A DNA stretch of 64,000 bases from Candidatus Nanoarchaeia archaeon (GTDB lineage: Archaea; Nanobdellota; Nanobdellia; SCGC-AAA011-G17; JAFCDX01): the NCBI GenBank assembly GCA_028716945.1, contig JAQUOT010000001.1, positions 187,927-251,926 of the forward strand, read 5' to 3'. A model generated the notes under the pieces. That model was not told where the DNA came from, searched no databases, and saw only the letters and a program-made list of their open reading frames with translations. This document shows, in pieces, positions 7,950-46,837 of this stretch (its first letter is position 1; each line of letters opens with the position of its first letter). The position numbers and the translations under genes are program-made.

Positions 7950-9162
7950 AAGCCTCTAAAACAAAGGCATTCATCCATTGCAGACTCCTTAACATAGGAT
8001 ATAACAATAAATATATAAGGGTAATGAAATGGAATTTCCACCTCTGATTAAAGTATTTATGGGCATAGATATAGATATAAAAACCAAATATAAAACTAGC
8101 AATTACAGGAAACCATATTCTTATATCTAAGCTTAAAATAAAATCTTTTACAGATGGCCATTCTATTATAAAATCAAATATTCCAAATCCCAACGTAATT
8201 ATCTTTGTTAAGGTTGTATAAACATATCTTAAAAATTGATAAGCAAATAATAAAAATGAAAATAAAACCATTAACATTGTTGTAACATTCAAAGGTAATT
8301 GGAACAACCCAATTAAACCATAATTTTTGTTAAAGAACATTTTTTTATATTTCCAGTTGTTTGTGATAAAACCTCTGAACCATCTTACTCTTTGTTTCCA
8401 GAAAGCCCTTATATTCAAAGGTCCATTTGTATAATTAATACTCCTTGGTTCTATAATTACATTATATTTATTATACCTCAATTTTAATGCAACTTCTAAG
8501 TCTTCTGTTAGATTGTTTTTGTCAAAACCCCCTAATTTTTTAATTAAATCTGTTCTGTAAACCGTCATAACTCCATGAGTCATGTGTAATGCTCCGATTC
8601 TAGATATTAATTTTCTAACAAAACTAGATAGAATATATTCTAATCTTTGTATTCTACCTAAATAGTTTATATCATTATTTATTAAAACAGAACTAATTAC
8701 CGCACCAATCTCCGGATCTGAGAAATGATTTACAATTAATTTCAAAGAATTTTTATCTACAAAAGAATCTGAATCAACTCTTGCAAAAAATTCAGTATCA
8801 ATTTGTTGCAAGGCAGCATTCAATGTTCCTGCTGCATTTCCACTATTGATTTTGTTTTGAATTAATTTAATATTTTTATGTTTTTTACAATATTCTTTAA
8901 TAATTAAAGGAGTATTATCTGTAGAAGCATCATCTGCTACAATTATTTTTAATTTATCTTTCGGATAATCCAGATTAAGTATAGAATCTAAGGTTTTTGC
9001 TATATTTTTTTCTTCATTATATGCAGGAACGACTACAGTAACTTTTGGAATTTCTTTTAATGGCTGCGGTTCTTTTGGTTCTCCTAAACCAACTATAATT
9101 AACCAAAAGATAGATACATATAGTGAAATGAAACACAATATCCATATATATATTTCAAACAT
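7927..9162 (-). CDS. Family-2 glycosyltransferase, processive type (QxxRW motif) with C-terminal TM helices
   Basis: VVVPAYNEE...DDASTDNT (GT-A fold, DxD), RVDSDS, and QRVRWFRG (Q-x-x-R-W, hallmark of processive beta-glycan synthases), followed by multiple TM helices. Confidence 0.65.
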   Translation of the reverse strand: MFEIYIWILCFISLYVSIFWLIIVGLGEPKEPQPLKEIPKVTVVVPAYNEEKNIAKTLDSILNLDYPKDKLKIIVADDASTDNTPLIIKEYCKKHKNIKLIQNKINSGNAAGTLNAALQQIDTEFFARVDSDSFVDKNSLKLIVNHFSDPEIGAVISSVLINNDINYLGRIQRLEYILSSFVRKLISRIGALHMTHGVMTVYRTDLIKKLGGFDKNNLTEDLEVALKLRYNKYNVIIEPRSINYTNGPLNIRAFWKQRVRWFRGFITNNWKYKKMFFNKNYGLIGLFQLPLNVTTMLMVLFSFLLFAYQFLRYVYTTLTKIITLGFGIFDFIIEWPSVKDFILSLDIRIWFPVIASFIFGFYIYIYAHKYFNQRWKFHFITLIYLLLYPMLRSLQWMNAFVLEAFGAKRKW

Positions 9163-9178
9163 TTTAACCCCCTGAATA

Positions 9179-10642
9179 TTAACAAACTAATTTGTAAACC
9201 TGTAAATTTTTTTCAAAGCAATCTGTATCAAACTTCTTACTATCTATATTGTATAATTTTTTAACCTTTTCTGATAAAAAGATATATTTTATGTTATTTT
9301 CTTTCATTTTTGAAATGGTTCTCTCTCCTGAATTTGAACTAAATAAAATTCCTGCGTCTAACATCCTCTTCTCCGGATTTGGTGCTAATAAGAAATTTGT
9401 ATCAAAAAAGTTTTTCTTGCCTGAAAAATAATTAATCAAATTTCCTTCATAAATAGTACCAATGACTATATCATTTTTATCCTGAGAATCTTGTTTTATC
9501 CATTGCAAAGATTCAATTTCTATATTACTAGGAACCTGGCTTGCAGTGTTTTTTGCCATGGTAAATGAAGGGTAAACTGAAAATAATACTAATAAAATTA
9601 CAAATATACTTAAAAGTAATTTATTCCAATGTGCTACTTTTGTTAATTTTAGATATTTAAAAAAATTATAGATGGTTAATGCAGACAAAATTGAAGCAGA
9701 TAATCCTATAAAAACTAAAGCTGTATAAAAATTAATCATTTTCAACGAGAGCAAAATTAGATTGGTTATTAATAATGAAGATATTAAAAATATTGCTTTC
9801 TTTTTGTATTTTGTAATTCCTTTATAAATAGTTATAAATCCAAATATTAAAGGAATGTAACCTAAATGATACATTATAGAAAGGATATTTATTTGTTTAA
9901 AAGAAGCCACAGATAATGAGCTAGGCAAATTGTTCCATAATACACTTATTCCATAACTTAACAAAGAATCTTTATAAATTAATAAATTTGTTAGTAAAGT
10001 AATAATTAAAAAAGATAATATCAAGATTATTTCATTTTTATTTAATTCAGAATCTTCTGCATAAGAAAAAACTAAATAAATTATAAAAAATAAAATTACT
10101 AGAATAGAGATTGGACTTAATAAAGCCAAAATGAGTGAGGATAATAAAAATAGAGAAAAGTATGTTTTTTTATCAAGGTTTAAAATACAATAAATCATAA
10201 AAAATATTAAAGGAAATGCAATGCAATACACAGAAACCTTGTTTAATGTTTCTCTAATTGCTAAAGGGACAAAACCCACCATGAATGCAGAAATTAATGC
10301 AGATCTTTCATCGTTTATTATTTGTTTTGATATTAAATAAGCAAGTATTACTAATAAAGACATAAAAAATTGTAAGATTATTTTATCTGCCCAAGGAATA
10401 AATGAAATCGCAGCTAAAAAATATGAAAATAGGGGTGAATTATTTACAGGCCTTCCTGAATAACTCAGTTCATCATAAATCATGGGTTTTAAATTTTCCT
10501 TGACATAATCTGCTTGTCTTAAATTGGCATAAGAAGTATCATCTGAAAATGAATTTTCTGGGGTGGATAAAGAAAAGTTCAATCTAAATAAAAATACAAC
10601 CAAAAACAAAACCAACAAAATTATTTTATATATTTTATTCAT
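9179..10642 (-). CDS. Multi-TM GT-C-like glycosyltransferase (ArnT/PMT/AglB-like architecture)
   Basis: 487 aa with about 11 predicted TM helices plus a C-terminal soluble domain, adjacent to the GT2. Homology is not verifiable here. Confidence 0.35.
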   Translation of the reverse strand: MNKIYKIILLVLFLVVFLFRLNFSLSTPENSFSDDTSYANLRQADYVKENLKPMIYDELSYSGRPVNNSPLFSYFLAAISFIPWADKIILQFFMSLLVILAYLISKQIINDERSALISAFMVGFVPLAIRETLNKVSVYCIAFPLIFFMIYCILNLDKKTYFSLFLLSSLILALLSPISILVILFFIIYLVFSYAEDSELNKNEIILILSFLIITLLTNLLIYKDSLLSYGISVLWNNLPSSLSVASFKQINILSIMYHLGYIPLIFGFITIYKGITKYKKKAIFLISSLLITNLILLSLKMINFYTALVFIGLSASILSALTIYNFFKYLKLTKVAHWNKLLLSIFVILLVLFSVYPSFTMAKNTASQVPSNIEIESLQWIKQDSQDKNDIVIGTIYEGNLINYFSGKKNFFDTNFLLAPNPEKRMLDAGILFSSNSGERTISKMKENNIKYIFLSEKVKKLYNIDSKKFDTDCFEKNLQVYKLVC

Positions 10643-11114
10643 TTTTTAATTTTAAATTATTATCTACTACATCAAAATAATCAAAGAACTTTTGAGTTAA
10701 TTTTAACATTCTTGTTCTTCCAGATTTTTCCGAAGTAACAAAACTACTTTCTTTTAAGAAATGAATATGATCATATGCTTTATTTCCTCTTATTTTTATG
10801 ATTTCTGCTTGTAAAACAGGTTGTTTGTATGCGATTACTGCCAAAGTTTCTTGTGTAGGAAAATCCAACTCAGAATCCGATAACAATTTTTCACTCAAAT
10901 ATAAATATTCTTTCTTTAAACAGAGCTTCCATTTATCTGCTTCATTTACTAATTCTAATGGTCCTTGTCTTTTAGAGTATTCATCTTTTAATTCAAGTAA
11001 TTTTTGAGCGATTAATCCTTGAGAACCTATGCTTGTTAAACTAGCTATTTCTGGTACAGATACAGGTCTTCCTAATATGAATAATACCGACTCTATTTTA
11101 TTCCTATTTTCCAT
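10635..11114 (-). CDS. scpB: Segregation and condensation protein B (ScpB-like, tandem winged helix)
   Basis: N-terminal ...ESVLFILGRPVSVPEIASL... and second repeat ...TQETLAVIAYKQPVLQAEIIKIRG... match the ScpB pattern. Confidence 0.55.
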   Translation of the reverse strand: MENRNKIESVLFILGRPVSVPEIASLTSIGSQGLIAQKLLELKDEYSKRQGPLELVNEADKWKLCLKKEYLYLSEKLLSDSELDFPTQETLAVIAYKQPVLQAEIIKIRGNKAYDHIHFLKESSFVTSEKSGRTRMLKLTQKFFDYFDVVDNNLKLKNE

Positions 11115-11216: not shown

Positions 11217-11570
11217 TTAATTCAAATATATTGGTTTCTTATCTTTGTCTGGTGTACCTCTAGGATTTTTTGGAGGTTCTTGAGAATGACCAACATAAAA
11301 TCTTAATAGAACAGTTAATGCCAACAGTTCTTCCTGTTGTACATTCATATAATCACGAGGTTTATCTTTCACAGCCTCGAATAGATCATAAAAACAATAC
11401 CACATCTCATCCCATAAAACTCTTCCTCGTTCAACTGCTTCTTTCCAAGTTTGAGGATGTTCATTATACAACAATTCTCCTTTATGTCTAAGGTGGTTAT
11501 TCCAATCAAGTTCATAAACCTTTTTACTTAATGCTTCAATTCTACGTTCTAATTCAATTACTTGATTCAT
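11217..11570 (-). CDS. Hypothetical Trp-rich protein (orphan)
   Basis: 117-aa ORF flanked by two about 150-bp intergenic regions. Codon usage is noticeably less AT-biased than neighbours. Confidence 0.3.
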   Translation of the reverse strand: MNQVIELERRIEALSKKVYELDWNNHLRHKGELLYNEHPQTWKEAVERGRVLWDEMWYCFYDLFEAVKDKPRDYMNVQQEELLALTVLLRFYVGHSQEPPKNPRGTPDKDKKPIYLN

Positions 11571-11721
11571 AACTTATTAATATTTACGATTGTTTATAAA
11601 TCTTTCGATTTGTTATTACTATAAAGTTATTAATATAAATTAACATTCGTCTAAAATTAATTCTTTAATAAAAAGGTTACTTTGAGGTTATTATTATTTA
11701 TAAAAACATTAACTTTAAATA

Positions 11722-12090
11722 TTACTCTAACCCTTGGTATTCTAAAGATTGTTTTTCGCTTAAACAAGCACCATCAAAACATCCTTCTTCACAATAAACT
11801 ATCATTGTTTGGAAATTAAAAGAATTTGTCGAATCACAATTATACTCTTTTAATCTATTTGCATCTACGCAATAATCTGTTCTTTCACGCAGATTACAAT
11901 CGTCTCCTCTTACTGAAACAGTTCCTTTTAGATTAATACTTCCTTGGTCTGTATCTTTACAAGATTTATCACAACCAACAAGAACATTACTAGTTGTTGT
12001 AAATTGAGTTACTCCCAAAGTTAATAAAAGAATTACTGCTATAAGTAATAAAGCAGATAATAAAACTTCTTTATTAAATTTCTTTGCCAT
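11722..12090 (-). CDS. Small membrane-anchored 6-Cys protein, paralogue 1 of 5 (CxDTDxG ... TDYC ... EYxC ... CxxGCxDGAC)
   Basis: N-terminal hydrophobic anchor, then CKDTDQG...TDYC...KEYNC...CEEGCFDGAC. Confidence 0.55.
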   Translation of the reverse strand: MAKKFNKEVLLSALLLIAVILLLTLGVTQFTTTSNVLVGCDKSCKDTDQGSINLKGTVSVRGDDCNLRERTDYCVDANRLKEYNCDSTNSFNFQTMIVYCEEGCFDGACLSEKQSLEYQGLE

Positions 12091-12091
12091 T

Positions 12092-12487
12092 TTATTTTAT
12101 GCAAGCTCCATCTTTACAACCTTTTTCACAAATAACCAATTTATCATTATATTCACTATAAGTAAAATCTTGAGAGTTAGAACTTTCTGGATCTGATCCA
12201 CAGAAATATTCTTTTACGGCAGAATATTTATTTTCTTCATTTGGTCCAACCTGTACATAAGCACAATAATCGGTTTTTGCTTCAAAAGCATAGCGTCCTT
12301 TGCTTACCGCAGTTACTGTACCTTTAACAAATTGATTATATCCTCCATCTGTATCATTACAACTTCTTTTTAGAAGAACGTTTCCAGTTGTAAAATTTAT
12401 AAAGCTTAATATAAAAAATGCGCAAACAGATACTATTAAAATTAGAATAATATAATCCCTAACATCCACTTCTTTTTTCTTTTTCAT
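12092..12487 (-). CDS. Small membrane-anchored 6-Cys protein, paralogue 2
   Basis: CNDTDGG...KTDYC...KEYFC...CEKGCKDGAC. Starts 1 nt after paralogue 1 ends. Confidence 0.55.
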   Translation of the reverse strand: MKKKKEVDVRDYIILILIVSVCAFFILSFINFTTGNVLLKRSCNDTDGGYNQFVKGTVTAVSKGRYAFEAKTDYCAYVQVGPNEENKYSAVKEYFCGSDPESSNSQDFTYSEYNDKLVICEKGCKDGACIK

Positions 12488-12561
12488 ATCTTATTTATAC
12501 ATTTAATTATTTATAAAGATTTCTATATAAATTAAAAAAATAAAAAATAAAAAATTTTAAT

Positions 12562-12891
12562 TTATTGTAAGCATGCTCCGTTTTGACAGCCATTTGCACA
12601 ATAAACTGAAGGATCTCTGTTATATCCGCTTGCATCTGCCACATTACAATTAAATTCTACTAATGTCTTTCCTGTTGAATCATCCATAGAACAATAATCT
12701 GTTTGTGGGTCAAAAGCAGTTCCTCCAGAATCAGTACCTGTTACAGTACCTTGCATGTAAATACTTCCACCATCAGTATCTTGACAAGAAACTTTTATAA
12801 CTTTTCCTGTTGTTAAAATACCTGATGCTAAAAGCACTGCTAAAACGAGCAAAACTACTAATCCGATTATAGTTTTGTCTTTTGTATCCAT
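12562..12891 (-). CDS. Small membrane-anchored 6-Cys protein, paralogue 3
   Basis: CQDTDGG...QTDYC...VEFNC...CANGCQNGAC. Confidence 0.55.
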   Translation of the reverse strand: MDTKDKTIIGLVVLLVLAVLLASGILTTGKVIKVSCQDTDGGSIYMQGTVTGTDSGGTAFDPQTDYCSMDDSTGKTLVEFNCNVADASGYNRDPSVYCANGCQNGACLQ

Positions 12892-12931
12892 AATTTAATT
12901 AAGAACAATCTATATTTAAATGTTTCTAAAC

Positions 12932-13267
12932 TTATTCTATGCAAGCGCCGTCTTTACAACCCTTTTCACAAACAACTAATTCAGATTCCCAATTATTTGG
13001 AGTAAGCAAATTACAGTTATATTCTTTTAATTCCTTTGTATTTTCTAAAGAACAATAGTCTGTTTCTTCAAATTGGGCATTGTAATCAGTATATCCTGTT
13101 ACTATTCCTTTTACATAAATACTTCCACTATCTGTATCTTCACAATGTGCTTTAAAACTAAATCCAGTAACTTTCTCAAAAAATCCTGTTGCAAAAAATA
13201 ATAAATATAAAGACAGTATTACAAAAATTACCAATAATTTTCTTGAAAAACCTTCAAATAATTTCAT
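12932..13267 (-). CDS. Small membrane-anchored 6-Cys protein, paralogue 4
   Basis: ORF track 12932..13309. Start moved to MKLFEGF (ATG 13265-13267) to remove the overlap with paralogue 5. CEDTDSG...ETDYC...KEYNC...CEKGCKDGAC. Confidence 0.5.
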   Translation of the reverse strand: MKLFEGFSRKLLVIFVILSLYLLFFATGFFEKVTGFSFKAHCEDTDSGSIYVKGIVTGYTDYNAQFEETDYCSLENTKELKEYNCNLLTPNNWESELVVCEKGCKDGACIE

Positions 13268-13281
13268 TTTGAAATAAAAAA

Positions 13282-13650
13282 TTATCTCTCGCAAGCCCCG
13301 TTCTTGCAACCATATTCACAAACAATAAATTTATAGGAATATGCGTTTTTGTCTGTTTCTTCTGGGTCAATATCATGCAAACAATAATATTCTTTTAAAA
13401 CATCGGTTTTTTCAGGATTATCTTCATAATATACACAATAGTCTACTTCATTAATCTGTATTTGAGAAGGATATTGGTGTCCTGAAAGCTTTCCTCTAGC
13501 AAATTCATTATCTCCACTATCAGTATCATAACAATAGCCTGCACGCATACTTTGCCCAGTAGTATAATTTATAGTATTATTTAGCACAATTAAAACTGCT
13601 AAAACAACTAAGATTGCAGAACCTATCACCACTTTATCTCTATTATCCAT
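13282..13650 (-). CDS. Small membrane-anchored 6-Cys protein, paralogue 5
   Basis: CYDTDSG...VDYC...KEYYC...CEYGCKNGAC. Confidence 0.55.
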   Translation of the reverse strand: MDNRDKVVIGSAILVVLAVLIVLNNTINYTTGQSMRAGYCYDTDSGDNEFARGKLSGHQYPSQIQINEVDYCVYYEDNPEKTDVLKEYYCLHDIDPEETDKNAYSYKFIVCEYGCKNGACER

Positions 13651-13690: not shown

Positions 13691-14782
13691 TTATTTAATA
13701 GGATATCTAAGTATAGCTGCTACTCCACCGATATCTTTTAGCTGTACCCCTTCTCTTGATTCTGTAGAAATCATTCTTACTTCGGTTTTGTATTTTTCTG
13801 CTTCTTCTTCAAGTTCTTCTATTTGTTTATCTGGAAGATTTTCAGATAATAATAAAACATCTACTGCACCCAAAGCCAAAGCTTTTTTGGTTTCAATTAA
13901 TCCATAAGTTGTTTTTTCTTCTTCCCTTGCTAATTTTTCGAAAAACTTTTGCATAATCTCTTTTTCTACAGTTATTTCTTCTTCTGCAAGAACTTCGTGA
14001 CTTCTTTCAACTAAATCATGTAATCCAGATTCTCCAGTATAAGATAAATCTTTTACAGCAATTATTTTTTTTCTTATTTCAGTTAATAAATAATTTCCAT
14101 CTACAAATTCTTGTTTTGTAGTACCAGGTCCACCAATTAATACTCCTTTTAAATCTGGTTTATTAAAAAATTCTTTGTTTGCAAATTCTGCAACCCTTTT
14201 ATAAAATTCGTGAGCTGCTTCTTCTCTTAAACGAGCATATCTTTGTTGTGAGAATCCACCTGTTTTTACTTTTCCTGGAACACCCGAAGTCATTGTAACT
14301 AGATTCTTAATATTTGTTCCTCTCAATAATCCAACATTGGCCTCTCTTTTATCAAGAACAATTAAACCAAATGTTTCTTTGATATTAATCATGTCTATCA
14401 AAGGTTCTAGTAAAAAAGTTTGATCACATCTATATACTCGCATGTTAATCGGTTCAGGAGGTTCTATAGACCAAACTTTAATATCAACTTTATTTTCTTT
14501 TTCAGAAGCATTTCCTGCAAAAACAGCCAATCCGTTCTCTGGAGTTCTTTTGTATAATCTTAAATGTTGTATCATCCTTTCAATAGAATCTATGACATGC
14601 ATTCTTGTTGTTTTATCTTTAATATTAGAAGCAGTTCCTTGTTCTTGAAATAAGTGATTCATAATTTTAACTAATTCATAACCTGCTGGAACATAAACAG
14701 AAACTAACTCAGTATGTCTTCCTCTAATTCCTTCTAATTCTTTTAATGTTTTCTTTAAAATATATCTTTCTTTTATATTCAT
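13691..14782 (-). CDS. prf1: Peptide chain release factor aRF1 homologue, with GGF in place of GGQ and NIKD in place of NIKS
   Basis: N-domain ...GTASNIKDKTTR...LYKRTPENGLAVFAG aligns to eRF1/aRF1 GTASNIKSRVNR...NGL.V. Middle domain KVKTGGFSQQRYARLREE aligns to HGRGGQSALRFARLR. Phe codon TTC at 14252-14254. Confidence 0.75.
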   Translation of the reverse strand: MNIKERYILKKTLKELEGIRGRHTELVSVYVPAGYELVKIMNHLFQEQGTASNIKDKTTRMHVIDSIERMIQHLRLYKRTPENGLAVFAGNASEKENKVDIKVWSIEPPEPINMRVYRCDQTFLLEPLIDMINIKETFGLIVLDKREANVGLLRGTNIKNLVTMTSGVPGKVKTGGFSQQRYARLREEAAHEFYKRVAEFANKEFFNKPDLKGVLIGGPGTTKQEFVDGNYLLTEIRKKIIAVKDLSYTGESGLHDLVERSHEVLAEEEITVEKEIMQKFFEKLAREEEKTTYGLIETKKALALGAVDVLLLSENLPDKQIEELEEEAEKYKTEVRMISTESREGVQLKDIGGVAAILRYPIK

Positions 14783-14783: not shown

Positions 14784-17144
14784 TTAAAATTCTATTTTTA
14801 AGTTATCTCCAAATTTAATCTCTTTTGCATTTGTAACAGCTTTCAAATCATCAAAAAATTCTTTTATAATCTTTTCATTCTTTTTTTCTATAGTAATAAT
14901 AACAGGTTCTTTCATTGATTTGTTATTTTTAGTTTTGAATTGTCTTACTTCATTAATTATATCTAAAACTAAATCTCCATCTTTTTCTAAATCTGTGTCT
15001 TTTAACTTTTTATCATACTCTGGCCAAGAAGTTAAATGTATGCTTTCTTTTTTCTTTAAAGTTTCTTGATAAATTTCTTCTGTTATAAAAGGAGTAATTG
15101 GGCCTAACATTTTTAATAAACAGATTAAAGTCTTATGTAAAGTATATTGTGCAGACATTCTAGAATCTTTTCCTCTTTTATCTGGATTATATAATCTATC
15201 TTTAACAATTTCTAAATAATTATCACAAAATATATGCCAAAAGAAATTTTCTATTTTTTGTTTTGGTTTTGAATAAGAATAATTTTCAAAATCTTCTGTG
15301 CATTCTTTTACTAAATTATTTAGTTTTATCAATAACCATTCATCAAATTTCTCTAGTTTTTTATTTTCTTTTTCTTTGTAATCTTGTAAGTGCATTGCAA
15401 CGAATTTGGAAGCATTCCATAATTTTGTTATTAATTTTTGTCCTGTAACTAAATCTTTTTCCTGATAATCTAAATCCTCTCCCAATTTTGAACCTGCTGC
15501 CCAAAACCTCATAGCATCTGTACCAAATTTATCTAAAACTTGTTTAGGATCAATAACATTTCCTAAAGATTTAGACATTTTTTCTCCACCAATTGTAACA
15601 TAACCAGAAATTGTAATATCTTTCCAAGGAATCTCTTTTTCGTGTAAATAAGATTTAGTTATGGTATAAAATGCCCAAGTTCTTATAATATCATGTGCTT
15701 GTGGTCTAAGAGAAAATGGAATTTTTATTTTTCCATTTACTAGAGAAGAAGCAATTTGTGGTGTTAAAGAAGAAGTTGCCCAAGTATCCAAAACTTTTTC
15801 TTCTCCGTTTGCATCTTGTTTACATTTAGGACATTTCTTTTTTGTTTGTAAAGGATCTATAGGTAATTCTTTTTCTTCAGGCAAGATTATTTCTCCACAT
15901 TTTTTACATTCCCAAACCGGAATAGGAATACCAAAGTGCCTGTCTCTTGAAATAGACCAATCCCATTCTAACCCATTTACCCAATTTTCATATCTTTTAA
16001 ACATGAATTCAGGATACCATCTAACTTTCTTCCCTTGTTCAATTAATTTTTTCTTTTTATCTAATATTTTAATAAACCATTGTTTTGTTGGAAGAAGTTC
16101 TATTTCAGTTCCACATCTGTCGTGTACGTTAACTATATGACTTATTGGTTTTTGTTCAGTAATTAAATCTACATTTTTTAAATCTTCAAGAATTTGCTTT
16201 CTTGCTTCTTTTATTTTAAGCCCTTTATATTTTCCAAAGTTTAAAGTTCCATCTTGATTAAAAACTATTTTTGGAGTAAGTTTATGTTTTGTTATTGCTT
16301 GTGCATCATATTTATCTCCATAAGAACATATCATTAATACTCCTGTTCCTTTTCCTATATCTGCAGATTCGTCAGCAATTATAGGAACTTCGAAATTAAA
16401 TAAAGGAACTTTTGCTTTTTTACCAACTAAATTTTTATAACGTTCATCAGAAGGATTTACAAATACAGCAACACATGCGGGCAATAATTCTGGCCTTGTT
16501 GTTGCTATTAACAAATCTTTTCCATTTGCTTTAAATTTCAAAGTAGAAAATAAACTTTCTAAATTTTTGTCTTCTAATTCTGCTTGTGCAACAGTAGTTC
16601 TACAATCTGTACACCATAAAGTTGGAAAGTCTTTAACATAAATATCTCCTTGTTTAAACAAATCAATAAAAGATTTTTGAGAAACTTTTTGAGTTGGTTT
16701 ATCTATAGTAGAATAATATATATTAAAATCTGCACTCATTGCTATATCTTTCCAATCTTGTATAAACCCAGGAGTTTGTTCTTTTAAAGTTTTTAAACAT
16801 AATTCAATAAATGCTGCCCTAGATATAGATTTACTTTTAATATTATTTGTTTTTTCTACAAATCTTTCTGTAGGTAACCCATTATCATCTGTTCCGAAAG
16901 GATAAAATACATTTTTTCCAGACATTCTTTGGTATCTTGCTATAAAATCTTGTTGTGAATATGAAAAAGCATGACCAATGTGCATTTTACCAGAAATATA
17001 AGGAGGAGGCGTATCTATAGAATAAACTGGTTTCTTTGAATTTATATCAAACTTGTAAATCTTATTCTTTTCCCAGTATTCCTTCCACTTCTTCTCTGAT
17101 GCTTTAAAATCATAATTCTGACTTGTCATATTAATTATCTCCAA
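14784..17144 (-). CDS. valS: Valyl-tRNA synthetase (archaeal type)
   Basis: PPPYISGKMHIGHAFSYSQQDFIARYQRMSGKNVFYPFGTDDNGLPTE (HIGH region as in archaeal ValRS) and KMSKSLGNVIDP. Confidence 0.75.
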   Translation of the reverse strand: MEIINMTSQNYDFKASEKKWKEYWEKNKIYKFDINSKKPVYSIDTPPPYISGKMHIGHAFSYSQQDFIARYQRMSGKNVFYPFGTDDNGLPTERFVEKTNNIKSKSISRAAFIELCLKTLKEQTPGFIQDWKDIAMSADFNIYYSTIDKPTQKVSQKSFIDLFKQGDIYVKDFPTLWCTDCRTTVAQAELEDKNLESLFSTLKFKANGKDLLIATTRPELLPACVAVFVNPSDERYKNLVGKKAKVPLFNFEVPIIADESADIGKGTGVLMICSYGDKYDAQAITKHKLTPKIVFNQDGTLNFGKYKGLKIKEARKQILEDLKNVDLITEQKPISHIVNVHDRCGTEIELLPTKQWFIKILDKKKKLIEQGKKVRWYPEFMFKRYENWVNGLEWDWSISRDRHFGIPIPVWECKKCGEIILPEEKELPIDPLQTKKKCPKCKQDANGEEKVLDTWATSSLTPQIASSLVNGKIKIPFSLRPQAHDIIRTWAFYTITKSYLHEKEIPWKDITISGYVTIGGEKMSKSLGNVIDPKQVLDKFGTDAMRFWAAGSKLGEDLDYQEKDLVTGQKLITKLWNASKFVAMHLQDYKEKENKKLEKFDEWLLIKLNNLVKECTEDFENYSYSKPKQKIENFFWHIFCDNYLEIVKDRLYNPDKRGKDSRMSAQYTLHKTLICLLKMLGPITPFITEEIYQETLKKKESIHLTSWPEYDKKLKDTDLEKDGDLVLDIINEVRQFKTKNNKSMKEPVIITIEKKNEKIIKEFFDDLKAVTNAKEIKFGDNLKIEF

Positions 17145-17188: not shown

Positions 17189-17338
17189 GGAGCGGTAGCT
17201 CAGAAAGGTTTTGAAGTTTAAGACCTTGAGCAACCTGGGAGAGCATAGAAATATCTCAAACCACGCTGAAGCCGTGGATGAAAGGTTATACGTCTAGTAT
17301 ACCTTGCCAAATCGGGGGTTCAAATCCCCCTCGCTCCA
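17189..17338 (+). tRNA. tRNA-Phe (anticodon GAA) with three insertions: D-loop about 27 nt, 16 nt at position 26/27, about 31 nt in the variable region
   Basis: Manual fold: acceptor GGAGCGG/TCGCTCC (G-U at pair 7), D-stem GCTC/GAGC, anticodon arm CCACG-CTGAAGC-CGTGG, T-arm GGGGG-TTCAAAT-CCCCC, discriminator A. The variable-region insert forms a hairpin TATAC-gtcta-GTATA. Confidence 0.5.
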
Positions 17339-18026
17339 TTTTCTTTATATTTTTAATATTAGAACTTCTTATTAATTTAATAAAAGAGGAGGCATTATTA
17401 TAACCGCTTATTTGTATTTTATATTTTTCATACCTTTTATTAGTTCTTTTATCTATATAATTTTCATGTCCTACATAATGATCTATCTTTTGAATTTTAA
17501 TCCAATCAGATATTTTGTATATTAAATTTTTATCTTTTAGACCAAGATTAATAACTGGATAAAATTTATATTTTCCGTGATTCTTTTTTAAACACAAAGA
17601 ACCATCTGTATCAAAAATTCCTTTAATGAATGCTTTAGCATAAATTTTATTATCCCATATCCATCGAGGAACCTTATTTCTATAATTTATTTTTTTATAA
17701 CCTATAATATTAAGAAAAGATAATATCCCTTTAGATCTCTTTGTTAAGATTAAAGTATTAATCTTTTTCTTTTGATATAAATTCATCTTTACATTGAATA
17801 AAAACAAAACTTTATCTTTAATATAGTTTGAATAATTCCTCTCATCTTTGAGATTACTAAAAATAGAAAAAATATAATCATTGCTTCCTAAATTATAATA
17901 AACATGGCCATCTCCAGACAAAATACCTAAAAATTCTGACAAGTCTCTAGAAGAGGATTTAGGAAAAATAATTTTATTCTTAATATCTTGGTGACTTAGT
18001 TGAATATCTGATAAATCAAATTTCAT
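17286..18026 (-). CDS. LAGLIDADG-family homing-endonuclease-like protein, copy 1
   Basis: Motifs LGILSGDGHV and KGIFDTDGSL (two LAGLIDADG-type helices, so a single-chain enzyme). Start set at MKFDLSDI (ATG 18024-18026) because upstream sequence is conserved non-coding in copy 2. The last about 17 codons are antisense to the tRNA-Phe 3' half. Confidence 0.55.
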   Translation of the reverse strand: MKFDLSDIQLSHQDIKNKIIFPKSSSRDLSEFLGILSGDGHVYYNLGSNDYIFSIFSNLKDERNYSNYIKDKVLFLFNVKMNLYQKKKINTLILTKRSKGILSFLNIIGYKKINYRNKVPRWIWDNKIYAKAFIKGIFDTDGSLCLKKNHGKYKFYPVINLGLKDKNLIYKISDWIKIQKIDHYVGHENYIDKRTNKRYEKYKIQISGYNNASSFIKLIRSSNIKNIKKMERGGFEPPIWQGILDV

Positions 18027-18048
18027 GATTAATAAAAAGCGAATTTGA

Positions 18049-18115
18049 TTTATAAATCTGGCGCGCACCCATCTGCAAGTTGCAATTTGTTAGAATATAT
18101 ATTTTGTGGAATATA
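18049..18115 (-). promoter_or_regulatory. Conserved about 65-bp upstream element of the LAGLIDADG paralogues (TATA box TTTATAAA about 23 nt before the ATG, plus GC-rich palindromic block)
   Basis: tttataaatctggcgcgcacccatctgcaagttgcaatttgttagaatatatatttt is nearly identical at 63404..63460. Contains palindromes GCGCGC and TTGCAA-C-TTGCAA. Confidence 0.4.
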
Positions 18116-18710: not shown

Positions 18711-20099
18711 ATGATAAAACTATTCAATACCTTAACAAGAAAAAAAGAAGAGTTTAAACCAATTAAAACTAAAGAAGTGGGAATTTATTCTTGTGGATTA
18801 ACCGTTTATAATTATGGGCATATAGGTAATTTTAGAGCTTTTGTATTTGCAGACTTATTGCATAGATATTTTGAATACAAAGGATTTAAAGTAAAACATA
18901 TTACAAATATAACTGATGTAGATGATAAAACCATTCGTGATTCACAAAAAGAAAAATTATCTTTAAAACAATTTACTTCTAAATATGAAAAAGCTTTTTT
19001 TGAGGATATTAAAACTTTGAATATTAAAGAATCTTTCAAATATCCTAAAGCTACAGAACACATTAAAGAAATGGTTTCTATAATAAAAAAATTATTAGAT
19101 AAAGGTTATGCTTACAAAACAGATGATGGAATTTATTTTAAAATTTCTAAAGATAAAGAATATGGTAAATTAGCTCATTTAAAATTTGCTGATTTAGAAG
19201 CAGGAGCATCTGAAAGAGTAACAAAAGACGAATATGATAAAGAAAATGTACAAGACTTTTGTTTATGGAAATTTTATGATAAATTAGATGGAGATGTTTT
19301 CTGGGATACAGAAATTGGAAAAGGAAGACCTGGATGGCATATAGAATGTTCTGCAATGTCAATGAAATATCTAGGAGAAACCTTTGATATTCATACTGGT
19401 GGAATTGATTTAATATTTCCTCATCATGAAAATGAAATTGCTCAATCAGAATGTGCAACAGGGAAAAAATTTGTAAATTATTGGTTGCATAATGAATTTA
19501 TTTTAGTTGATGGTAAAAAAATGTCTAAATCTCTGGGTAATTTTTATACTTATAGAGATGTTCTTGCAAAAGGGTATTCTGGAATGGAAATAAGATATTC
19601 CTTATTAAGCACACATTATAGAATCCCATTTAATTTTACTTTTGAGGGGCTTGATTCTGCTAGAAACTCGCTAAAAAGACTTAATGAATTTGTAAATAGA
19701 TTAAATTTTGTAAAATCAGACAAAGATAGCAAAAAAGTTTCTGATTTAATTAAAAACGTTAAAAAAGAATTTGAAGAATCCTTAGATGATGATTTAAATA
19801 TTGCAAATGCTCTTGCTTCAATCTTTGGTTTTATCAGTGAGATAAATAAATTAAAAATAAGTAAAAAAGAAGCAAAAGAAATATTAAAAACATTAAATGA
19901 ATTTGATCAAGTTCTTGGTTTAAACTTAATTTCAAAAAAAGAATCTATTCCAAAAGAAATAAAAGAATTAATGGATAAAAGAGAAAAATATAGAAAAGAA
20001 AAAGACTGGAAAAAGGCCGATGAAATTAGAGATAAATTAAAAGAAAAAGGATTTGTTCTTGAAGATACTAAAGAAGGAATTATTTGGAAAAAAGCTTAA
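18711..20099 (+). CDS. cysS: Cysteinyl-tRNA synthetase
   Basis: GLTVYNYGHIGNFRAF (HIGH), zinc-binding C...C...H...E, KMSKSLGN. Confidence 0.85.
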   Translation: MIKLFNTLTRKKEEFKPIKTKEVGIYSCGLTVYNYGHIGNFRAFVFADLLHRYFEYKGFKVKHITNITDVDDKTIRDSQKEKLSLKQFTSKYEKAFFEDIKTLNIKESFKYPKATEHIKEMVSIIKKLLDKGYAYKTDDGIYFKISKDKEYGKLAHLKFADLEAGASERVTKDEYDKENVQDFCLWKFYDKLDGDVFWDTEIGKGRPGWHIECSAMSMKYLGETFDIHTGGIDLIFPHHENEIAQSECATGKKFVNYWLHNEFILVDGKKMSKSLGNFYTYRDVLAKGYSGMEIRYSLLSTHYRIPFNFTFEGLDSARNSLKRLNEFVNRLNFVKSDKDSKKVSDLIKNVKKEFEESLDDDLNIANALASIFGFISEINKLKISKKEAKEILKTLNEFDQVLGLNLISKKESIPKEIKELMDKREKYRKEKDWKKADEIRDKLKEKGFVLEDTKEGIIWKKA

Positions 20100-39009: not shown

Positions 39010-39783
39010 TTAATAAACCTTAAAAAGCTTTCTAAATATACTATTTAATATCACTGCCATAATAATATATACCCATAACCACCCCAATCCAAATATCTTT
39101 ATAGGGGCATTACTGACTGTAATTGTCTTAATATCTTGGTTTACAATTTCTATAGGGGTAAGATATTCTTTATTATTTGAAATTAGGATATCTTTACTAT
39201 AAGTTTTATTATTATAATCAAAAGTTAATGAATATTTCCCTTCTTGTTTGGCCTTTAATAAAAAACCTGCTTTTTTGTCTTCAACTTTTTTTGTATCTGA
39301 ATCTAAACTTTCTATATTTTCAGGAAGAATTATTTTTATATCTCCAAGATTTTCTTTGAAAGTTAAATTTACTGAAAATTCCTGGTCTGGAGTTATAGCA
39401 TTATAAGCTAAATGAGTTGAAAACCAACCAAATATTATCAAAATTGGAATCATAGTGATTAACATTGGTTTCATAGTTTGTTTCATTTGCACCATGCTTT
39501 TTTCCATAGAAATTTTTTGTAATTCCATTAATTTTTTAGAATCATTTTTAGATTCATCCATTTTTTTTCTGAGGTCTTTCATTTCATCTCTTATAGATTT
39601 TAATAATGCTTGATCTGTTAATTTTTTATAAGCAACTATAGAAATTAAAGTTACAATCAAAGTAATTATTAAAATAGCAAAGAAAGGATGTAATTTTAAT
39701 AAAGGTCCAAAAATTGGATTCAAAATTGGATTAAATATACTACCAAACCAATCAGTCATTGAAGAAGCCATTTTATTTTGCAA
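39010..39783 (-). CDS. Archaeal YidC/Oxa1-like insertase (DUF106 family) with C-terminal extension
   Basis: TM1, a long charged coiled-coil (...IRDEMKDLRKKMDESKNDSKKLMELQKISMEKSMVQMKQTMKP...), TM2/TM3. Position right after secY is typical. Confidence 0.45.
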   Translation of the reverse strand: MQNKMASSMTDWFGSIFNPILNPIFGPLLKLHPFFAILIITLIVTLISIVAYKKLTDQALLKSIRDEMKDLRKKMDESKNDSKKLMELQKISMEKSMVQMKQTMKPMLITMIPILIIFGWFSTHLAYNAITPDQEFSVNLTFKENLGDIKIILPENIESLDSDTKKVEDKKAGFLLKAKQEGKYSLTFDYNNKTYSKDILISNNKEYLTPIEIVNQDIKTITVSNAPIKIFGLGWLWVYIIMAVILNSIFRKLFKVY

Positions 39784-41188
39784 TCATCTTCCTTAATGCA
39801 GGATACATATCCATCATATGTTGCTTTGCAATATCTTCGTACATTCTATAAACAATCATAACTGTTAATAATATTCCAGTACCTCTACCTAAAGCACCAG
39901 ATAAATCTGCAGCAGATGCAACAATACCTATTGTAACTGCTCCCATTATTGTTAAAGGTAGAATATATCTTTTTAATATTGATTCTAAAACTCTAGGATC
40001 TCTTCTAAACCCTGGAATTTGTAAACCAGACGCCATAATATTTTTTGCTTGTGATTCTGCATCCATTCCAGCAGTCTGCATCCAAAATAATGCAAAAATT
40101 ACTGATCCCACAACCATAAATATTAAATAAACAAAAGCATGGAATAAACTACTTGGAGTAAATGCGCCTGTCAAAATAGTTCTTAAAATATCTGGACTAT
40201 ATATCCAAGAGACTAAACCTGAAGCAGGAACGTTCCCTGAAAAAGTTCCTAGTATAGGGCGTCCCCAATTTTCAAAGAATCTTGCAATTAATTGAATATT
40301 TGCCATTAATGCCGCAGTTAAAATAACAGGAATATTGCTAGTATATAAGAAATTCAATGGCCACCTTATTCCATAACCTCTAACTCTTCCAAAACTTAAA
40401 GGAATTTCAATTTTAATTGCTTGAAAATATACCGACATAAAAAATACAGCTATTGTAGCAAGTATTGTTGATAATGCTAAAATTGCTCCAGTAGGATCTC
40501 CTCCAGATAGAGAAAGGAAGAAAACCCAAAGTGCTCCAACAGGAGATTGACCTGAACCAAATGCCCAAGTTCCAGTTGTTGTTAAAGGTGAGAAAGCTCT
40601 AATGAAAACTTCCATTGAAACATTAGCGGCTATGAATAATGAAATACCTGAACCAAATCCCCATTTCTGCATAATCTCATCCATATATAATACCATTAAT
40701 CCACCAAGAATTAATTGTCCAATCAAAACTAATTGCATTATGAAATAAGTTCCAGGAGCTAAACCATCTGCGGGAGCTAAACCTCCCATAAAAACATAAA
40801 TTGCTCCTTCAAAAATTATAAAAAAGATTGATAATAATTTTTGGAATCCTTGGAATTTTAGTCTTCCTTCTTTTGTATGAGTATCAAATTTCATTAATCC
40901 AGAACCATTCAATAATTGTAATACAATTGATGCAGTAACAATTGGCCCAATACCTAAAGACATTATAGAACCAAATTGTGCTCCTAAAATAATTGATAAT
41001 TGTTGAAATTGAGCTAATGAATTTTTACCAAGCCCAAATAAAGGAATAACTGATAAAACAAAGAATGAAATTAAAACTATTAAAGTCCATTTTAATTTTT
41101 CATTAAAACCTAATTTCTTTTCTAATGGACCTTTTACTTCAGGAAGATTCGCTAGAAACGTTTCTATTAGGGACAACCACTTCACCAC
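39773..41188 (-). CDS. secY: Preprotein translocase SecY
   Basis: 10-TM protein with SecY-typical segments (...GIGPIVTASIVLQLL..., ...MLLMFLAL-like). Position after uL15. The annotated start overlaps rpl15 and the true start is probably an internal Met. Confidence 0.85.
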   Translation of the reverse strand: MVKWLSLIETFLANLPEVKGPLEKKLGFNEKLKWTLIVLISFFVLSVIPLFGLGKNSLAQFQQLSIILGAQFGSIMSLGIGPIVTASIVLQLLNGSGLMKFDTHTKEGRLKFQGFQKLLSIFFIIFEGAIYVFMGGLAPADGLAPGTYFIMQLVLIGQLILGGLMVLYMDEIMQKWGFGSGISLFIAANVSMEVFIRAFSPLTTTGTWAFGSGQSPVGALWVFFLSLSGGDPTGAILALSTILATIAVFFMSVYFQAIKIEIPLSFGRVRGYGIRWPLNFLYTSNIPVILTAALMANIQLIARFFENWGRPILGTFSGNVPASGLVSWIYSPDILRTILTGAFTPSSLFHAFVYLIFMVVGSVIFALFWMQTAGMDAESQAKNIMASGLQIPGFRRDPRVLESILKRYILPLTIMGAVTIGIVASAADLSGALGRGTGILLTVMIVYRMYEDIAKQHMMDMYPALRKMIAK

Positions 41189-41609
41189 CCATTGCTTCTA
41201 TTTTTTCTTTTGCTTTTTCTGAACAAGCATTACAGATAATTTTTAATTTATTTTTTACTTTTCCAGAACCAAGCAGTTTTTCATATCCAAATTCGTTTAA
41301 ATCAATAACATAAACAGAACCTTCTTTCTTTGCAAACTTTTCTAAGTTTTTTTCGAGATCTTCTATATTAATTGCTTCAAGTTTTGTTTGAGATCTTTTT
41401 ATTTTAATTGAATTAAAGCCGTGTTTACCATAATAATCTTTACCTTCATATTTTAAAATAGCAATTTTCTTATGAGCTGCTCTTTTTCCAGTTCCTGCCT
41501 TTCCAACTCCTCCACGGTTACCAGATCCTCTGTGTCTGTGCTTACCTCCCCATCCACAAGTTCTAGTTGCCCTAAATCTTGTATCTTTTCTTCTTTTTCT
41601 AACTACCAT
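41139..41609 (-). CDS. rpl15: Ribosomal protein uL15
   Basis: ...TRTCGWGGKHRHRGSGNRGG... Confidence 0.8.
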   Translation of the reverse strand: MVVRKRRKDTRFRATRTCGWGGKHRHRGSGNRGGVGKAGTGKRAAHKKIAILKYEGKDYYGKHGFNSIKIKRSQTKLEAINIEDLEKNLEKFAKKEGSVYVIDLNEFGYEKLLGSGKVKNKLKIICNACSEKAKEKIEAMGGEVVVPNRNVSSESS

Positions 41610-41610
41610 T

Positions 41611-42081
41611 TTATAACATCCTTTTTATTAAATCATTTATTTTATTTCCTCTATAACCTAAAGCACCACCCATACTAAAAGGAATTTTAATTCCGCCACG
41701 TTCAAAACCTTTTCTTGGAGGTGTTAATCTGAAATATTTTTTAAGACCAGGGATGTCTCTTAATTCTTTTTTTAATTTCATAAACTCTTCTGTAAATTCA
41801 TCAAAACTTAATTTTGCATTTTTTTTCAAATATTCTTCTGTTAATAATTGGTTTCCTGCAATTCTTCCTCTCTTTTTTAATAACTCTTTGAAAGTTTCTT
41901 TGTCTAATTCTCCCCAAGTAACAAAGTCCTTTACTAAAGTTAACATTCCAACACTTGAAGGATCTGCTCTTACAAGAACGCAAGAATTCTTTCTATGTAA
42001 ATTCAACATAGTTAAAGTATCCTTTACTGGTTTCTTTAGACCAATTATTCCTCTCACTTGAATTATTGCTATTCTTGACAT
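41611..42081 (-). CDS. rpl30: Ribosomal protein uL30
   Basis: MSRIAIIQVRGIIGLKKPVKDTLTMLNL... Confidence 0.8.
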   Translation of the reverse strand: MSRIAIIQVRGIIGLKKPVKDTLTMLNLHRKNSCVLVRADPSSVGMLTLVKDFVTWGELDKETFKELLKKRGRIAGNQLLTEEYLKKNAKLSFDEFTEEFMKLKKELRDIPGLKKYFRLTPPRKGFERGGIKIPFSMGGALGYRGNKINDLIKRML

Positions 42082-42082
42082 T

Positions 42083-42910
42083 TTACTTCTGCACTTTCAT
42101 TTTATTTAATTGTTTTAAAGCTTCAAATCCAGCTTTTAATAAATTTAATTTGGTATTTGTTGTTCCAAAAGTTTTGGAATATACATCTTTTATTCCTGCC
42201 ATTTCTAATAAATTTCTTAATTCTTTTTCTACAATTAATCCTGTACCTTTTGGAGCAGGTTTAAATGTTACTCTTACTGAACCACATCCTCCAGAAACAG
42301 CGAATGGAATTGTATGATTTTCTCCACAACCACAAGCCCATGAACCACAACCAAATTTAATTTTAATTATATTTAATTTTGCATTTTTAATTGCTTTTTC
42401 TCTTGCTGGAACAGTTTCTTTTGCTTTTCCTAATCCAATTCCAACATAACCATTATGATTTCCAACAACTACGAGAGTTGAGAATTTAGGTTTGTTTCCT
42501 TCTTTAGTTTTTTTCTGGGTTTGTTTCCAAATACTTCTCTTTCCTCCACCGAATTTACCTTTAGATTGACCTATACAAATTAAAACGTGAGTTAAATTTG
42601 GAATTAATCTATCTGCTATTTCTGGTTCTAAGAAAGGTTTTGGATTATCTAGTATTTCATCAATATTAGTTATTTCTCCAGAAGCAACTTTTCTACCTAG
42701 CTCTGTTTTTGGTTTCCATTCTTTTTCAACAATTTTTATTCCACGTTCTTCTGCTGCTACATCGGTTACTTCTTTCAAAACTTCTATAATTGCCTTTTCT
42801 TCCAGAACTGCTTTTTCTTCTACAGCCAGTTCTTTCTGCATTCCATCTACCTTAGCAACATCTTCTCCGGGATGTTTTTCTCTTGGTGCTTTTCTTGTTA
42901 TTTTTTCCAT
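42083..42910 (-). CDS. rps5: Ribosomal protein uS5 with N-terminal acidic extension
   Basis: ...VVVGNHNGYVGIGLGKAKE... Confidence 0.8.
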   Translation of the reverse strand: MEKITRKAPREKHPGEDVAKVDGMQKELAVEEKAVLEEKAIIEVLKEVTDVAAEERGIKIVEKEWKPKTELGRKVASGEITNIDEILDNPKPFLEPEIADRLIPNLTHVLICIGQSKGKFGGGKRSIWKQTQKKTKEGNKPKFSTLVVVGNHNGYVGIGLGKAKETVPAREKAIKNAKLNIIKIKFGCGSWACGCGENHTIPFAVSGGCGSVRVTFKPAPKGTGLIVEKELRNLLEMAGIKDVYSKTFGTTNTKLNLLKAGFEALKQLNKMKVQK

Positions 42911-42911
42911 T

Positions 42912-43454
42912 TTACATCTTCATTATTTTATTTTTTAAGTCTTCAAACTCCTCTTTTAATTTTTCTGGTTTGTTTTTTGAAAACTGTAATTTATTTTTTG
43001 TATTTTGAGAATAGTTTATTATATGTTTTCCTTGTATCCTATCTTCACTTGGGTAAATTTCATCTGTATGTGGAATTTCTATTTTTGAATCAACAACTCC
43101 TTTTAAAGCAGCATATATCCTTTCTCCAGCTCCGAATAAACCCATATCCAAAATTGCTTTTTTAATGTTTTTCTTTTTTGCTTCAGCTCCTGCTAATAGA
43201 CCTGTTAAATATGCTGCAGGAACATTACCTGTATTTGCCTTCCATCCTAATTTTTTTAATTCACAACTATTACAAGAAACTAAAACTTTGTCTCCTTTTG
43301 GAGAATAATCAACAAATTGAATAATTATATTATTAAGAGTTTTTCTTATGACTAATCTTGTCTTTCCAGAACTAAGTAATTTTAATCTAGTTCTATAATC
43401 CGTTCTTCTTTCAGATTTTCTCTTATATTCCTTAAATCTTTTCTGTTGTTTCAT
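42912..43454 (-). CDS. rpl18: Ribosomal protein uL18
   Basis: ...RLVIRKTLNNIIIQFVDYSPKGDKVL... Confidence 0.8.
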   Translation of the reverse strand: MKQQKRFKEYKRKSERRTDYRTRLKLLSSGKTRLVIRKTLNNIIIQFVDYSPKGDKVLVSCNSCELKKLGWKANTGNVPAAYLTGLLAGAEAKKKNIKKAILDMGLFGAGERIYAALKGVVDSKIEIPHTDEIYPSEDRIQGKHIINYSQNTKNKLQFSKNKPEKLKEEFEDLKNKIMKM

Positions 43455-43906
43455 TTTTTCTTATTTACCAAATTATATTCATTCATGAATAGTTTTATGT
43501 GTCTTACGCTTCTGAAAAATCCTCCCTTAGCCTTATTTCTTAAGATTCTATAATTATGTTTATTTACTATTTCTTTTTGTCTTAACTCTTTCAAGAATTT
43601 TCTTTGTGCTCTTATTCTTGAGATCCAATCGTGTTTTCTTGATAATCTTGCAGTTTTAAATCCTTGTCTTGAACCTTTTCCTTGACGTCTTCCTTTTCTT
43701 CTTTGAATAATAATTCTTCTTGCACCAGATCTTGAATGACCATCTTTTTGCTCTTTAATAATAACTCCTTGTTTAACCAAAGCATGAATATCTCTTCTTG
43801 TAATTGCTTCTTTTATTTCGGAGAGCTTTTCCTCATTAAATTTAACTCTCTTTCTGCCTACTCCAAGCAGTCTTATAGCTAATTTTTTCTTTGGTCCTAA
43901 TTTCAT
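43451..43906 (-). CDS. rpl19e: Ribosomal protein eL19
   Basis: MKLGPKKKLAIRLLGVGRKRVKFNEEKL... Confidence 0.8.
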   Translation of the reverse strand: MKLGPKKKLAIRLLGVGRKRVKFNEEKLSEIKEAITRRDIHALVKQGVIIKEQKDGHSRSGARRIIIQRRKGRRQGKGSRQGFKTARLSRKHDWISRIRAQRKFLKELRQKEIVNKHNYRILRNKAKGGFFRSVRHIKLFMNEYNLVNKKK

Positions 43907-43907
43907 T

Positions 43908-45001: not shown

Positions 45002-45002
45002 T

Positions 45003-45395: not shown

Positions 45396-45396
45396 T

Positions 45397-46145: not shown

Positions 46146-46146
46146 T

Positions 46147-46836: not shown

Positions 46837-46837
46837 T

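Follow-up and report, generated by a model that had tools for sequence, protein, structure and literature searches.

The GGQ sequence is the textbook motif of all class-I release factors, on which the unrelated bacterial and archaeo-eukaryotic factors have converged, and its glutamine is modified by dedicated methyltransferases in all three domains of life. In the archaeal and eukaryotic factors (a/eRF1) this residue has been described as universally conserved (PMC2613156; PMC6144793; PMC6514570); in archaeal release factor 1 (aRF1) it is normally N5-methylated by Mtq2 (PMC6144793), an enzyme that prefers a G-Q-X3-R context (PMC10804810). Across the eRF1 superfamily, classical aeRF-1 proteins carry GGQ, aVLRF-1/acVLRF-1 proteins GGxSQ and VLRF-1 proteins GxuQ, and the glutamine has been treated as catalytic (Burroughs & Aravind, 2019; PMC6514570). 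In yeast Vms1, which has the loop GGSQ, residue Q295 is required and deletion of the serine to give GGQ abolishes function (PMC5989216). The 64,000-nucleotide stretch analysed here (the window), positions 187,927 to 251,926 of contig JAQUOT010000001.1 from a Candidatus Nanoarchaeia archaeon, contains an aRF1 gene in which the GGQ glutamine is replaced by phenylalanine (Phe177) and a glutamine (Gln179) is found two residues further on (+2). This GGF substitution is real, recurrent and under strong purifying selection, it occurs in an orthologous locus, and it is tightly coupled to the glutamine at +2.

Identification of the gene as aRF1, made from the letters alone in a first-pass annotation, was borne out by profile comparisons. 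The open reading frame (ORF) matches the Pfam domains eRF1_1, eRF1_2 and eRF1_3 (52.5, 138.5 and 84 bits, respectively), and its product belongs to the NCBIfam equivalog TIGR03676 (aRF1_eRF1; 430.7 bits, cutoff 234.7). The protein falls below the cutoffs of the pelota model (TIGR00111; 116.7 bits, cutoff 177.65), which matches the M and C domains only, and of the acVLRF1 model (NF041024; 51.1 bits, cutoff 125). A fold search with an AlphaFold2 model of the protein (mean predicted local distance difference test [pLDDT] 84.4) returned archaeal aRF1 4af1 as the best match (TM 0.74, E 2e-38) and also ribosome-bound eRF1, Pelota structures being many orders of magnitude worse. The motifs for decoding and for the partner GTPase, NIKD, YxCxxxF and a GILRY-like C-terminal motif, are all kept (Table 1); Y117, C119 and F123 are invariant in the homologue alignment, and the GILRY motif of eRF1 is known to take part in the eRF1-eRF3 interaction (PMC2613156).

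HMMER alignments to 4af1 and human eRF1 place GGF 175-177 opposite GGQ and NIKD 53-56 opposite NIKS, gap-free and with no frameshift nearby, confirming the in-frame replacement reported at first pass. The coding strand around the loop reads ACA GGT GGA TTC TCA CAA CAA AGA TAT (T G G F S Q Q R Y). Of the canonical motif the Gly-Gly pair is kept and the glutamine is lost, with a glutamine at +2, and the resulting GGFSQ (175-179) has the form of an acVLRF1/VLRF1-type loop (GGxSQ/GxuQ), although at the family level the protein lies outside acVLRF1. The accompanying change of NIKS to NIKD, also singled out at first pass, is present but is not special: NIKD was read in at least 109 and NIKS in 5 of the best 120 database homologues, whose source labels are Woesearchaeota, Nanoarchaeota or Nanoarchaeia, and the S of NIKS may be L, N or D (Atkinson et al., 2008; PMC2613156). 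Since NIKD is the norm in the clade and variability of the serine has already been documented, it carries no signal.

Alignment to aRF1 proteins of related DPANN genomes, suggested in the first-pass annotation, showed that the substitution recurs. GGF is found in 10 of the 120 best homologues and GGQ in the other 110, 7 of which have an intein immediately behind the motif. A 98%-identical aRF1 in an independent metagenome-assembled genome (MAG) of Ca. Nanoarchaeia that is a GTDB species representative (locus L001; contig JBAZJB010000001.1, 766 kb) also reads GGF, in DNA that is 84-92% identical to the window. The two aRF1 genes are separated by 79 synonymous and 9 non-synonymous codon differences, a ratio of non-synonymous to synonymous substitution (dN/dS, Nei-Gojobori) of 0.036. 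When metagenomes were searched with a degenerate DNA pattern for PGK-x3-GGFSQ-x-R-[YF]-x-RLR, 14 loci were recovered, all 14 of which are aRF1 genes with GGF. Several GGF proteins recur across samples or assemblers (JGI, ENA, SRA/Logan and NCBI), and 21 distinct GGF aRF1 sequences were obtained in total.

The phenylalanine does not vary alone. Throughout the GGF set the loop is strictly conserved as GGFSQ.RY.RLR, and among all distinct clade sequences glutamine occupies +2 in 21/21 GGF proteins vs 48/111 GGQ proteins; for the best 120 homologues the figures are 10/10 and 48/103 (Fisher p = 0.0013). Position +5 is tyrosine in 19 of the 21 GGF sequences and in 20 of the 111 GGQ sequences, 90 of which have phenylalanine there, whereas position -5 is V, L or I in every GGF sequence and never threonine, the commonest residue in the GGQ set. 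An exhaustive HMMER search, in which a 42-column GGF-loop profile was run against 1.84 billion 50%-identity representatives, extended the pattern to other residues, matching 115 GGQ loops and the non-Q aRF1-like loops GGW (11), GGF (4), GGS (4) and GGM (2); a further 14 matches outside the motif pattern include a few more non-Q loops, some in intein-bearing alleles (GGF/C and GGW/C, the slash marking the intein boundary). Nine of ten full-length non-Q representatives lie above the TIGR03676 cutoff, NIKS and YxCxxxF are kept, and two of the GGW genes sit in ordinary housekeeping neighbourhoods. Glutamine at +2 was present in 22/23 non-Q representatives (GGW, GGF, GGS and GGM) vs 35/119 with GGQ (Fisher p = 1.6e-9). 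In a further protein, P0231 (907 aa), eRF1_2 and eRF1_3 with a GGWSQ loop stand at the C-terminal end behind a long N-terminal stretch with bacterial TSP3 repeats, which points to either an unusual fusion or a gene-calling artefact.

The sequence GGQSQ, with two glutamines, accounts for 47% of the clade and for only 2/59 aRF1 loci of other archaea, mostly Bathyarchaeia, which read GGQSA, and it is a plausible permissive ancestor of GGFSQ. In one case (lineage C) the closest GGQ relatives of the GGF proteins have alanine at +2, and there the glutamine was therefore apparently gained together with the phenylalanine.

The genomic setting of the gene is that of an ordinary aRF1. Gene order in the window is CysRS, a 170-aa ORF, a LAGLIDADG-like ORF, valS, aRF1, small Cys-rich ORFs, ScpB, a 487-aa ORF and a family-2 glycosyltransferase (GT2), and a matching order is found around the GGQ aRF1 of sister genomes (L072 and L074) as well as around the GGF aRF1 at L075, L082, L087, L089, L092, L094 and L095. 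ScpB is kept downstream of aRF1 in L072, L074, L075, L082, L087, L092 and L094, and valS is a neighbour common to GGQ and GGF loci. The gene is the positional orthologue of aRF1, which makes a Pelota-like paralogue unlikely. No second aRF1 or Pelota was detected in the 64-kb window, where a phmmer search of aRF1 against six-frame ORFs of at least 50 aa matched only itself, or in the flanks of 23 GGF loci. The aRF1 gene is normally single-copy, and with the positional orthology this suggests that the window gene is probably the sole aRF1 of its genome. Stop-codon reassignment, which had been raised as a point for inspection, is rejected: TAA (63), TGA (13) and TAG (3) all serve as terminators in the window, at a coding density of 91%, and no suppressor tRNA was detected there. 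An omnipotent release factor is therefore needed.

The closest precedent for the loop itself comes from the Vms1-like proteins. P0238 (187 aa, Dehalococcoidia), recovered as a profile match, is a true acVLRF1 (PF18859, 119.5 bits) with the loop GGWSQ, and its best 120 homologues, named in their sources 'acVLRF1 family' or 'Vms1/Ankzf1 family peptidyl-tRNA hydrolase', read GGSSQ (90), GGWSQ (11), GGQSQ (10) or GGTSQ (6), that is GG[S/W/Q/T]SQ in 117/120. The window loop G176-F-S-Q179 fits GxuQ exactly. Given the Vms1 GGSQ and acVLRF1 GGxSQ precedents, displaced-glutamine loops therefore function in the eRF1-superfamily fold, and the aRF1 variants appear to have converged on such a loop, the likeness to acVLRF1 being confined to the loop. 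The earlier prediction that GGF denotes a hydrolysis-defective factor does not follow, as every one of the 21 GGF proteins retains the +2 glutamine in a loop matching the VLRF1 type.

It is proposed, with a probability of roughly one half, that the window gene encodes a working, orthologous and probably sole aRF1 that employs the Gly-Gly turn and Gln179, with Phe177 as an aromatic filler. An ordinary orthologous class-I release factor would still terminate translation at each of the three stop codons, with a catalytic loop changed from GGQSQ to GGFSQ and an aromatic residue where the canonical glutamine stands; Gln179 would most likely supply the glutamine function in the peptidyl-transferase centre; and the backbone of the Gly-Gly turn would be kept, with Phe177 as a packing or stacking residue. 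Competence in hydrolysis, the catalytic role of Gln179 and the presence of a single aRF1 in the genome are inferred.

Several points weigh against this proposal. The release activity of aRF1 proteins with GGxSQ is a prediction, that of acVLRF1 is itself only predicted, and the chemistry of displaced-glutamine loops is debated, since ANKZF1/Vms1 have been reported to cut the CCA end of the tRNA and not to hydrolyse the ester (PMC7026593). The profile used on the representative set itself contains SQ, a bias that is the same for the GGQ control matches. One exception, P0160, reads GGWSAN, and if it is functional the glutamine at +2 is therefore not absolutely required. Beyond the 64-kb window, the status of sole aRF1 would follow from positional orthology and the usual single-copy state. 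In the AlphaFold2 model the helix begins at residue 178, as in ordinary eRF1, and so shows no sign of a re-registered loop, although confidence in the catalytic loop is low (pLDDT ~61) and the model is uninformative as to its register.

The strongest competing explanation, which is nevertheless unlikely, is that the factor is functional and Phe177 itself suffices, acting through the backbone amide of residue 177 and hydrophobic packing, with Gln179 permissive or structural only. Catalysis has been attributed to the backbone amide of the glutamine (PMC6742477), the side chain of which packs (PMC5799190), and according to the title of a study cited in PMC2613156 mutation of the glutamine in human eRF1 leaves some activity. 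Phenylalanine and tryptophan dominate the non-Q variants, phenylalanine is conserved despite synonymous codon variation, and P0160 does without a glutamine at +2. Phenylalanine cannot be methylated and GGFSQQR offers no G-Q-X3-R site; the residue perhaps imitates N5-methyl-glutamine, making the Mtq2 methyltransferase unnecessary. No ORF with an NPPY motif was found in the 64-kb window. What a sufficient Phe177 leaves unexplained is the glutamine at +2, invariant with GGF and missing from a single non-Q representative vs a frequency of 29-47% with GGQ, and also the small residues that occur at x (GGS).

An improbable alternative is that the protein is a hydrolysis-defective derivative, such as a rescue factor resembling Pelota, a regulator that binds stop codons or a modulator of readthrough, accompanied by a canonical GGQ aRF1 elsewhere in the genome. 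Loss of the glutamine is the usual mark of inactive superfamily members, for example Dom34 and most baeRF-1 families (PMC6514570), and archaeal paralogy exists, two aRF1-like loci (L047 and L059) having been found in one Bathyarchaeia-like MAG. These lie on two contigs of MAG CAVXES01 ('uncultured archaeon MFD02416.bin.1.263') and both match query residues 5-316 only; they may represent aRF1 paralogy outside DPANN. The window gene, however, lies in precisely the syntenic position that the canonical aRF1 has in GGQ sisters, no second aRF1 or Pelota accompanies it or the other GGF genes over the regions searched, and its branch shows no acceleration, with a root-to-tip length like those of the GGQ sisters and the low dN/dS given above. 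All decoding and GTPase-binding motifs are kept and the loop is conserved, whereas inactive families have degenerate or length-variable loops. A factor that read stop codons without hydrolysing would, moreover, act like the dominant-negative eRF1(AAQ) that has been used to trap termination complexes (PDB titles). The Dom34/Pelota-like rescue paralogue offered as one option in the first-pass annotation is unlikely on the same grounds: N-domain motifs and the GILRY-like end are retained, the pelota score is below cutoff, and both the dN/dS of 0.036 and the valS-aRF1-ScpB slot shared with the aRF1 of GGQ sisters disfavour it further.

It is very improbable that the GGxSQ loop has changed the chemistry, so that release proceeds by cutting the tRNA 3'-CCA in the manner of ANKZF1/Vms1 and not by ester hydrolysis; G176-F-S-Q179 does fit GxxQ/GxuQ and ANKZF1 is reported to cleave the CCA end (PMC7026593), but tRNA would be damaged at every termination event, the nuclease reading has been disputed by Burroughs & Aravind (PMC6514570), and nothing in the window suggests dedicated tRNA-end repair. 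An artefact of sequencing, assembly or gene calling at the Phe177 codon, for which nothing speaks beyond the prior improbability of GGQ loss, is excluded for practical purposes by the recovery of 21 distinct GGF sequences in independent samples and with different assemblers, the use of both phenylalanine codons, the covarying flanking residues and the need for three nucleotide changes, TTT/TTC differing from CAA/CAG at all three positions and not at two as first stated.

The GGF proteins do not form a single clade. In identity matrices every GGF group has its closest relatives among GGQ sequences and not in the other GGF groups: the window group is ~70% identical to its GGQ sisters (P0002-P0009) and 60-65% to other GGF groups, and the GGF proteins P0054/P0094 are 79-82% identical to the GGQ proteins P0083/P0084 and 54-70% to GGF proteins of other groups. 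On a neighbour-joining tree in which residues 170-184 were masked to keep the trait from driving the topology, Fitch parsimony gave 6 changes between Q and F, with 5-7 in 100/100 bootstraps. A single GGF clade is rejected by these analyses, and the distribution of GGF would need five to seven independent Q<->F switches in related archaea. One GGF-rich clade is deep, its members being only ~60-70% identical to each other, and GGF has therefore persisted stably over long evolutionary periods. The idea that a short DNA cassette encoding GGF had spread horizontally was also rejected. The Phe177 codon is TTC in the window, L001, L075 and L080 and TTT in L076, L078 and L082, and the codons for the adjacent G, G, S and R also differ among lineages, so that the loci do not share a recombined cassette.

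Inteins were found in ten of the homologous aRF1 proteins (P0010, P0012, P0013, P0071, P0080, P0086, P0093, P0123, P0138 and P0163), inserted exactly between the x of GGx and the following serine (GGQ/C...HN/SQQRY). The alleles concerned include GGF (P0123, 791 aa) and GGW (P0138). Most of the insertions are mini-intein-like and add roughly 125-135 aa (up to 167), while that of P0123 is large (~428 aa). Escape from an intein homing endonuclease was considered as a driver of GGF and rejected, because the inteins of the closest relatives are mini-inteins and both GGF/C (P0123) and GGW/C (P0138) exist.

Table 1. Positions in the window of the aRF1 gene, its motifs and the neighbouring genes
Feature	Position	Strand	Remarks
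aRF1 gene	13691..14782	-	363 aa; domains N, M and C; no C-domain mini-insertion
NIKD, residues 53-56	14615..14626	-	Usual form in the clade of the NIKS stop-codon-recognition motif
YRCDQTF, residues 117-123	14414..14434	-	Intact YxCxxxF decoding motif
Val172 (-5)	14267..14269	-	
Catalytic loop G175-G176-F177-S178-Q179	14246..14260	-	GGFSQ, for GGQSx
Phe177 codon, TTC	14252..14254	-	Canonical catalytic Gln position; plus strand 'gaa'
Gln179 codon, CAA (+2)	14246..14248	-	Candidate displaced catalytic Gln
Tyr182 (+5)	14237..14239	-	Covaries with Phe177
GGVAAILRY, residues 352-360	13703..13729	-	GILRY-like C-terminal motif
valS (valine-tRNA ligase)	14784..17144	-	Directly upstream of aRF1; NF009687, 1025 bits (cutoff 738)
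ScpB	10635..11114	-	Downstream synteny anchor; PF04079, 119 bits
CysRS	18711-20099		In the window gene order

Some features of the surrounding DNA were recorded in passing. Directly downstream of aRF1 are six tandem small ORFs of 109-131 aa (11217-13650, minus strand); in two of them (12932-13650) the N-terminus is hydrophobic and the C-terminal part bears a Cys-rich motif, C..YGC.(N/D)GAC, with no Pfam match for either. At the sister-strain locus L001 a 643-aa multi-repeat protein of the same small Cys-rich ORF kind (7956-9887) lies between valS and aRF1. Between CysRS and valS is a 260-aa ORF (17286-18068, minus strand) with a faint LAGLIDADG_3 match, and a LAGLIDADG-like ORF is present at the equivalent place in the GGQ sister locus L074 (2833-3456). 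The 3' end of the window ORF is overlapped by a weak tRNA match on the plus strand (17189-17338; 31.6 bits, gathering threshold 29), with two long insertions, one of 36 nt in the D-loop region and another of ~46 nt in the anticodon arm; it is probably a multi-intron tRNA. Further away, about 25 small co-oriented ORFs (~39010-51134, minus strand), many of which overlap their neighbours at ATGA and end in TGA, look like the large ribosomal-protein gene cluster, and the window also contains an uninterrupted tRNA-Glu(CTC) (55941-56013) and a 98-nt, presumably intron-containing tRNA-Ile(GAT) (60786-60883, minus strand).

The supposedly universal GGQ motif has exceptions. Full-text searches of the literature yielded no description of a non-Q aRF1 within the searchable library, and within those limits the proteins constitute a recurrent, undescribed variant of a very well-known factor. 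A tentative generalization, for which the odds fall a little short of even, is that several small-genome (DPANN-type) archaeal lineages possess as their only class-I release factor one that lacks the GGQ glutamine and terminates translation on a displaced glutamine, GG[F/W/S/M]SQ, presumably without N5-methylation. If the displaced-glutamine reading is true, a type of loop otherwise known only from rescue factors that act independently of stop codons (Vms1/acVLRF1) would run ordinary termination. The non-Q aRF1 proteins form a link between the canonical factors of termination and Vms1-like rescue factors with their GGxSQ/GxxQ loops. Natural, repeatedly evolved and selected aRF1 proteins without the glutamine bear on whether its side chain serves in water positioning, nucleophile exclusion or packing, and the GGF variants display the compensations that allow its loss, namely glutamine at +2, tyrosine at +5 and an aliphatic residue at -5. 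The annotation rule that a protein without GGQ is catalytically dead is unsafe for the eRF1 superfamily. Non-Q loops can be tried in existing yeast, mammalian and archaeal termination assays.

Compared with canonical aRF1/eRF1 (TIGR03676; PDB 4af1, 3agk and 1dt9), the window protein has the same three-domain architecture and fold, the NIK(S/D), YxCxxxF and GILRY-like motifs, the Gly-Gly turn and the R..R.LR helix downstream of it, and it likewise occupies the genomic position of the orthologue in a genome that uses all three stop codons. It differs in having phenylalanine for the GGQ glutamine, with glutamine at +2, an aliphatic residue at -5 and tyrosine at +5 fixed alongside. With Pelota/Dom34 it shares homologous M and C domains and the lack of the canonical glutamine, but Pelota is devoid of the whole GGQ minidomain, of NIKS and of YxCxxxF and has an Sm-like N domain (PMC2613156; PMC6514570), whereas the window protein keeps all of the aRF1 motifs.

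The acVLRF1/aVLRF-1 proteins (PF18859, NF041024) are Vms1-like release factors of Chloroflexota, Actinobacteria and archaea, and their loops can be nearly identical to those of the aRF1 variants, as in acVLRF1 RHKAGGWSQQRFARR and aRF1 P0036 KIHAGGFSQQRFARL. GGxSQ is common to both, x being S, W, Q or T in acVLRF1 and F, W, S or M in the aRF1 variants, with the glutamine at +2 conserved. Unlike acVLRF1, the window protein has a stop-codon-recognition N domain, for which P0238 shows no Pfam match; it scores below the acVLRF1 family cutoff, contains eRF1_1 and eRF1_3, and is a positional orthologue of aRF1. Vms1/ANKZF1 (VLRF-1) resembles it as a member of the eRF1 superfamily with the glutamine displaced from the Gly-Gly pair; however, Vms1 is without a decoding domain and acts on 60S-peptidyl-tRNA complexes independently of stop codons, and its glutamine is displaced by one residue, that of the window aRF1 by two.

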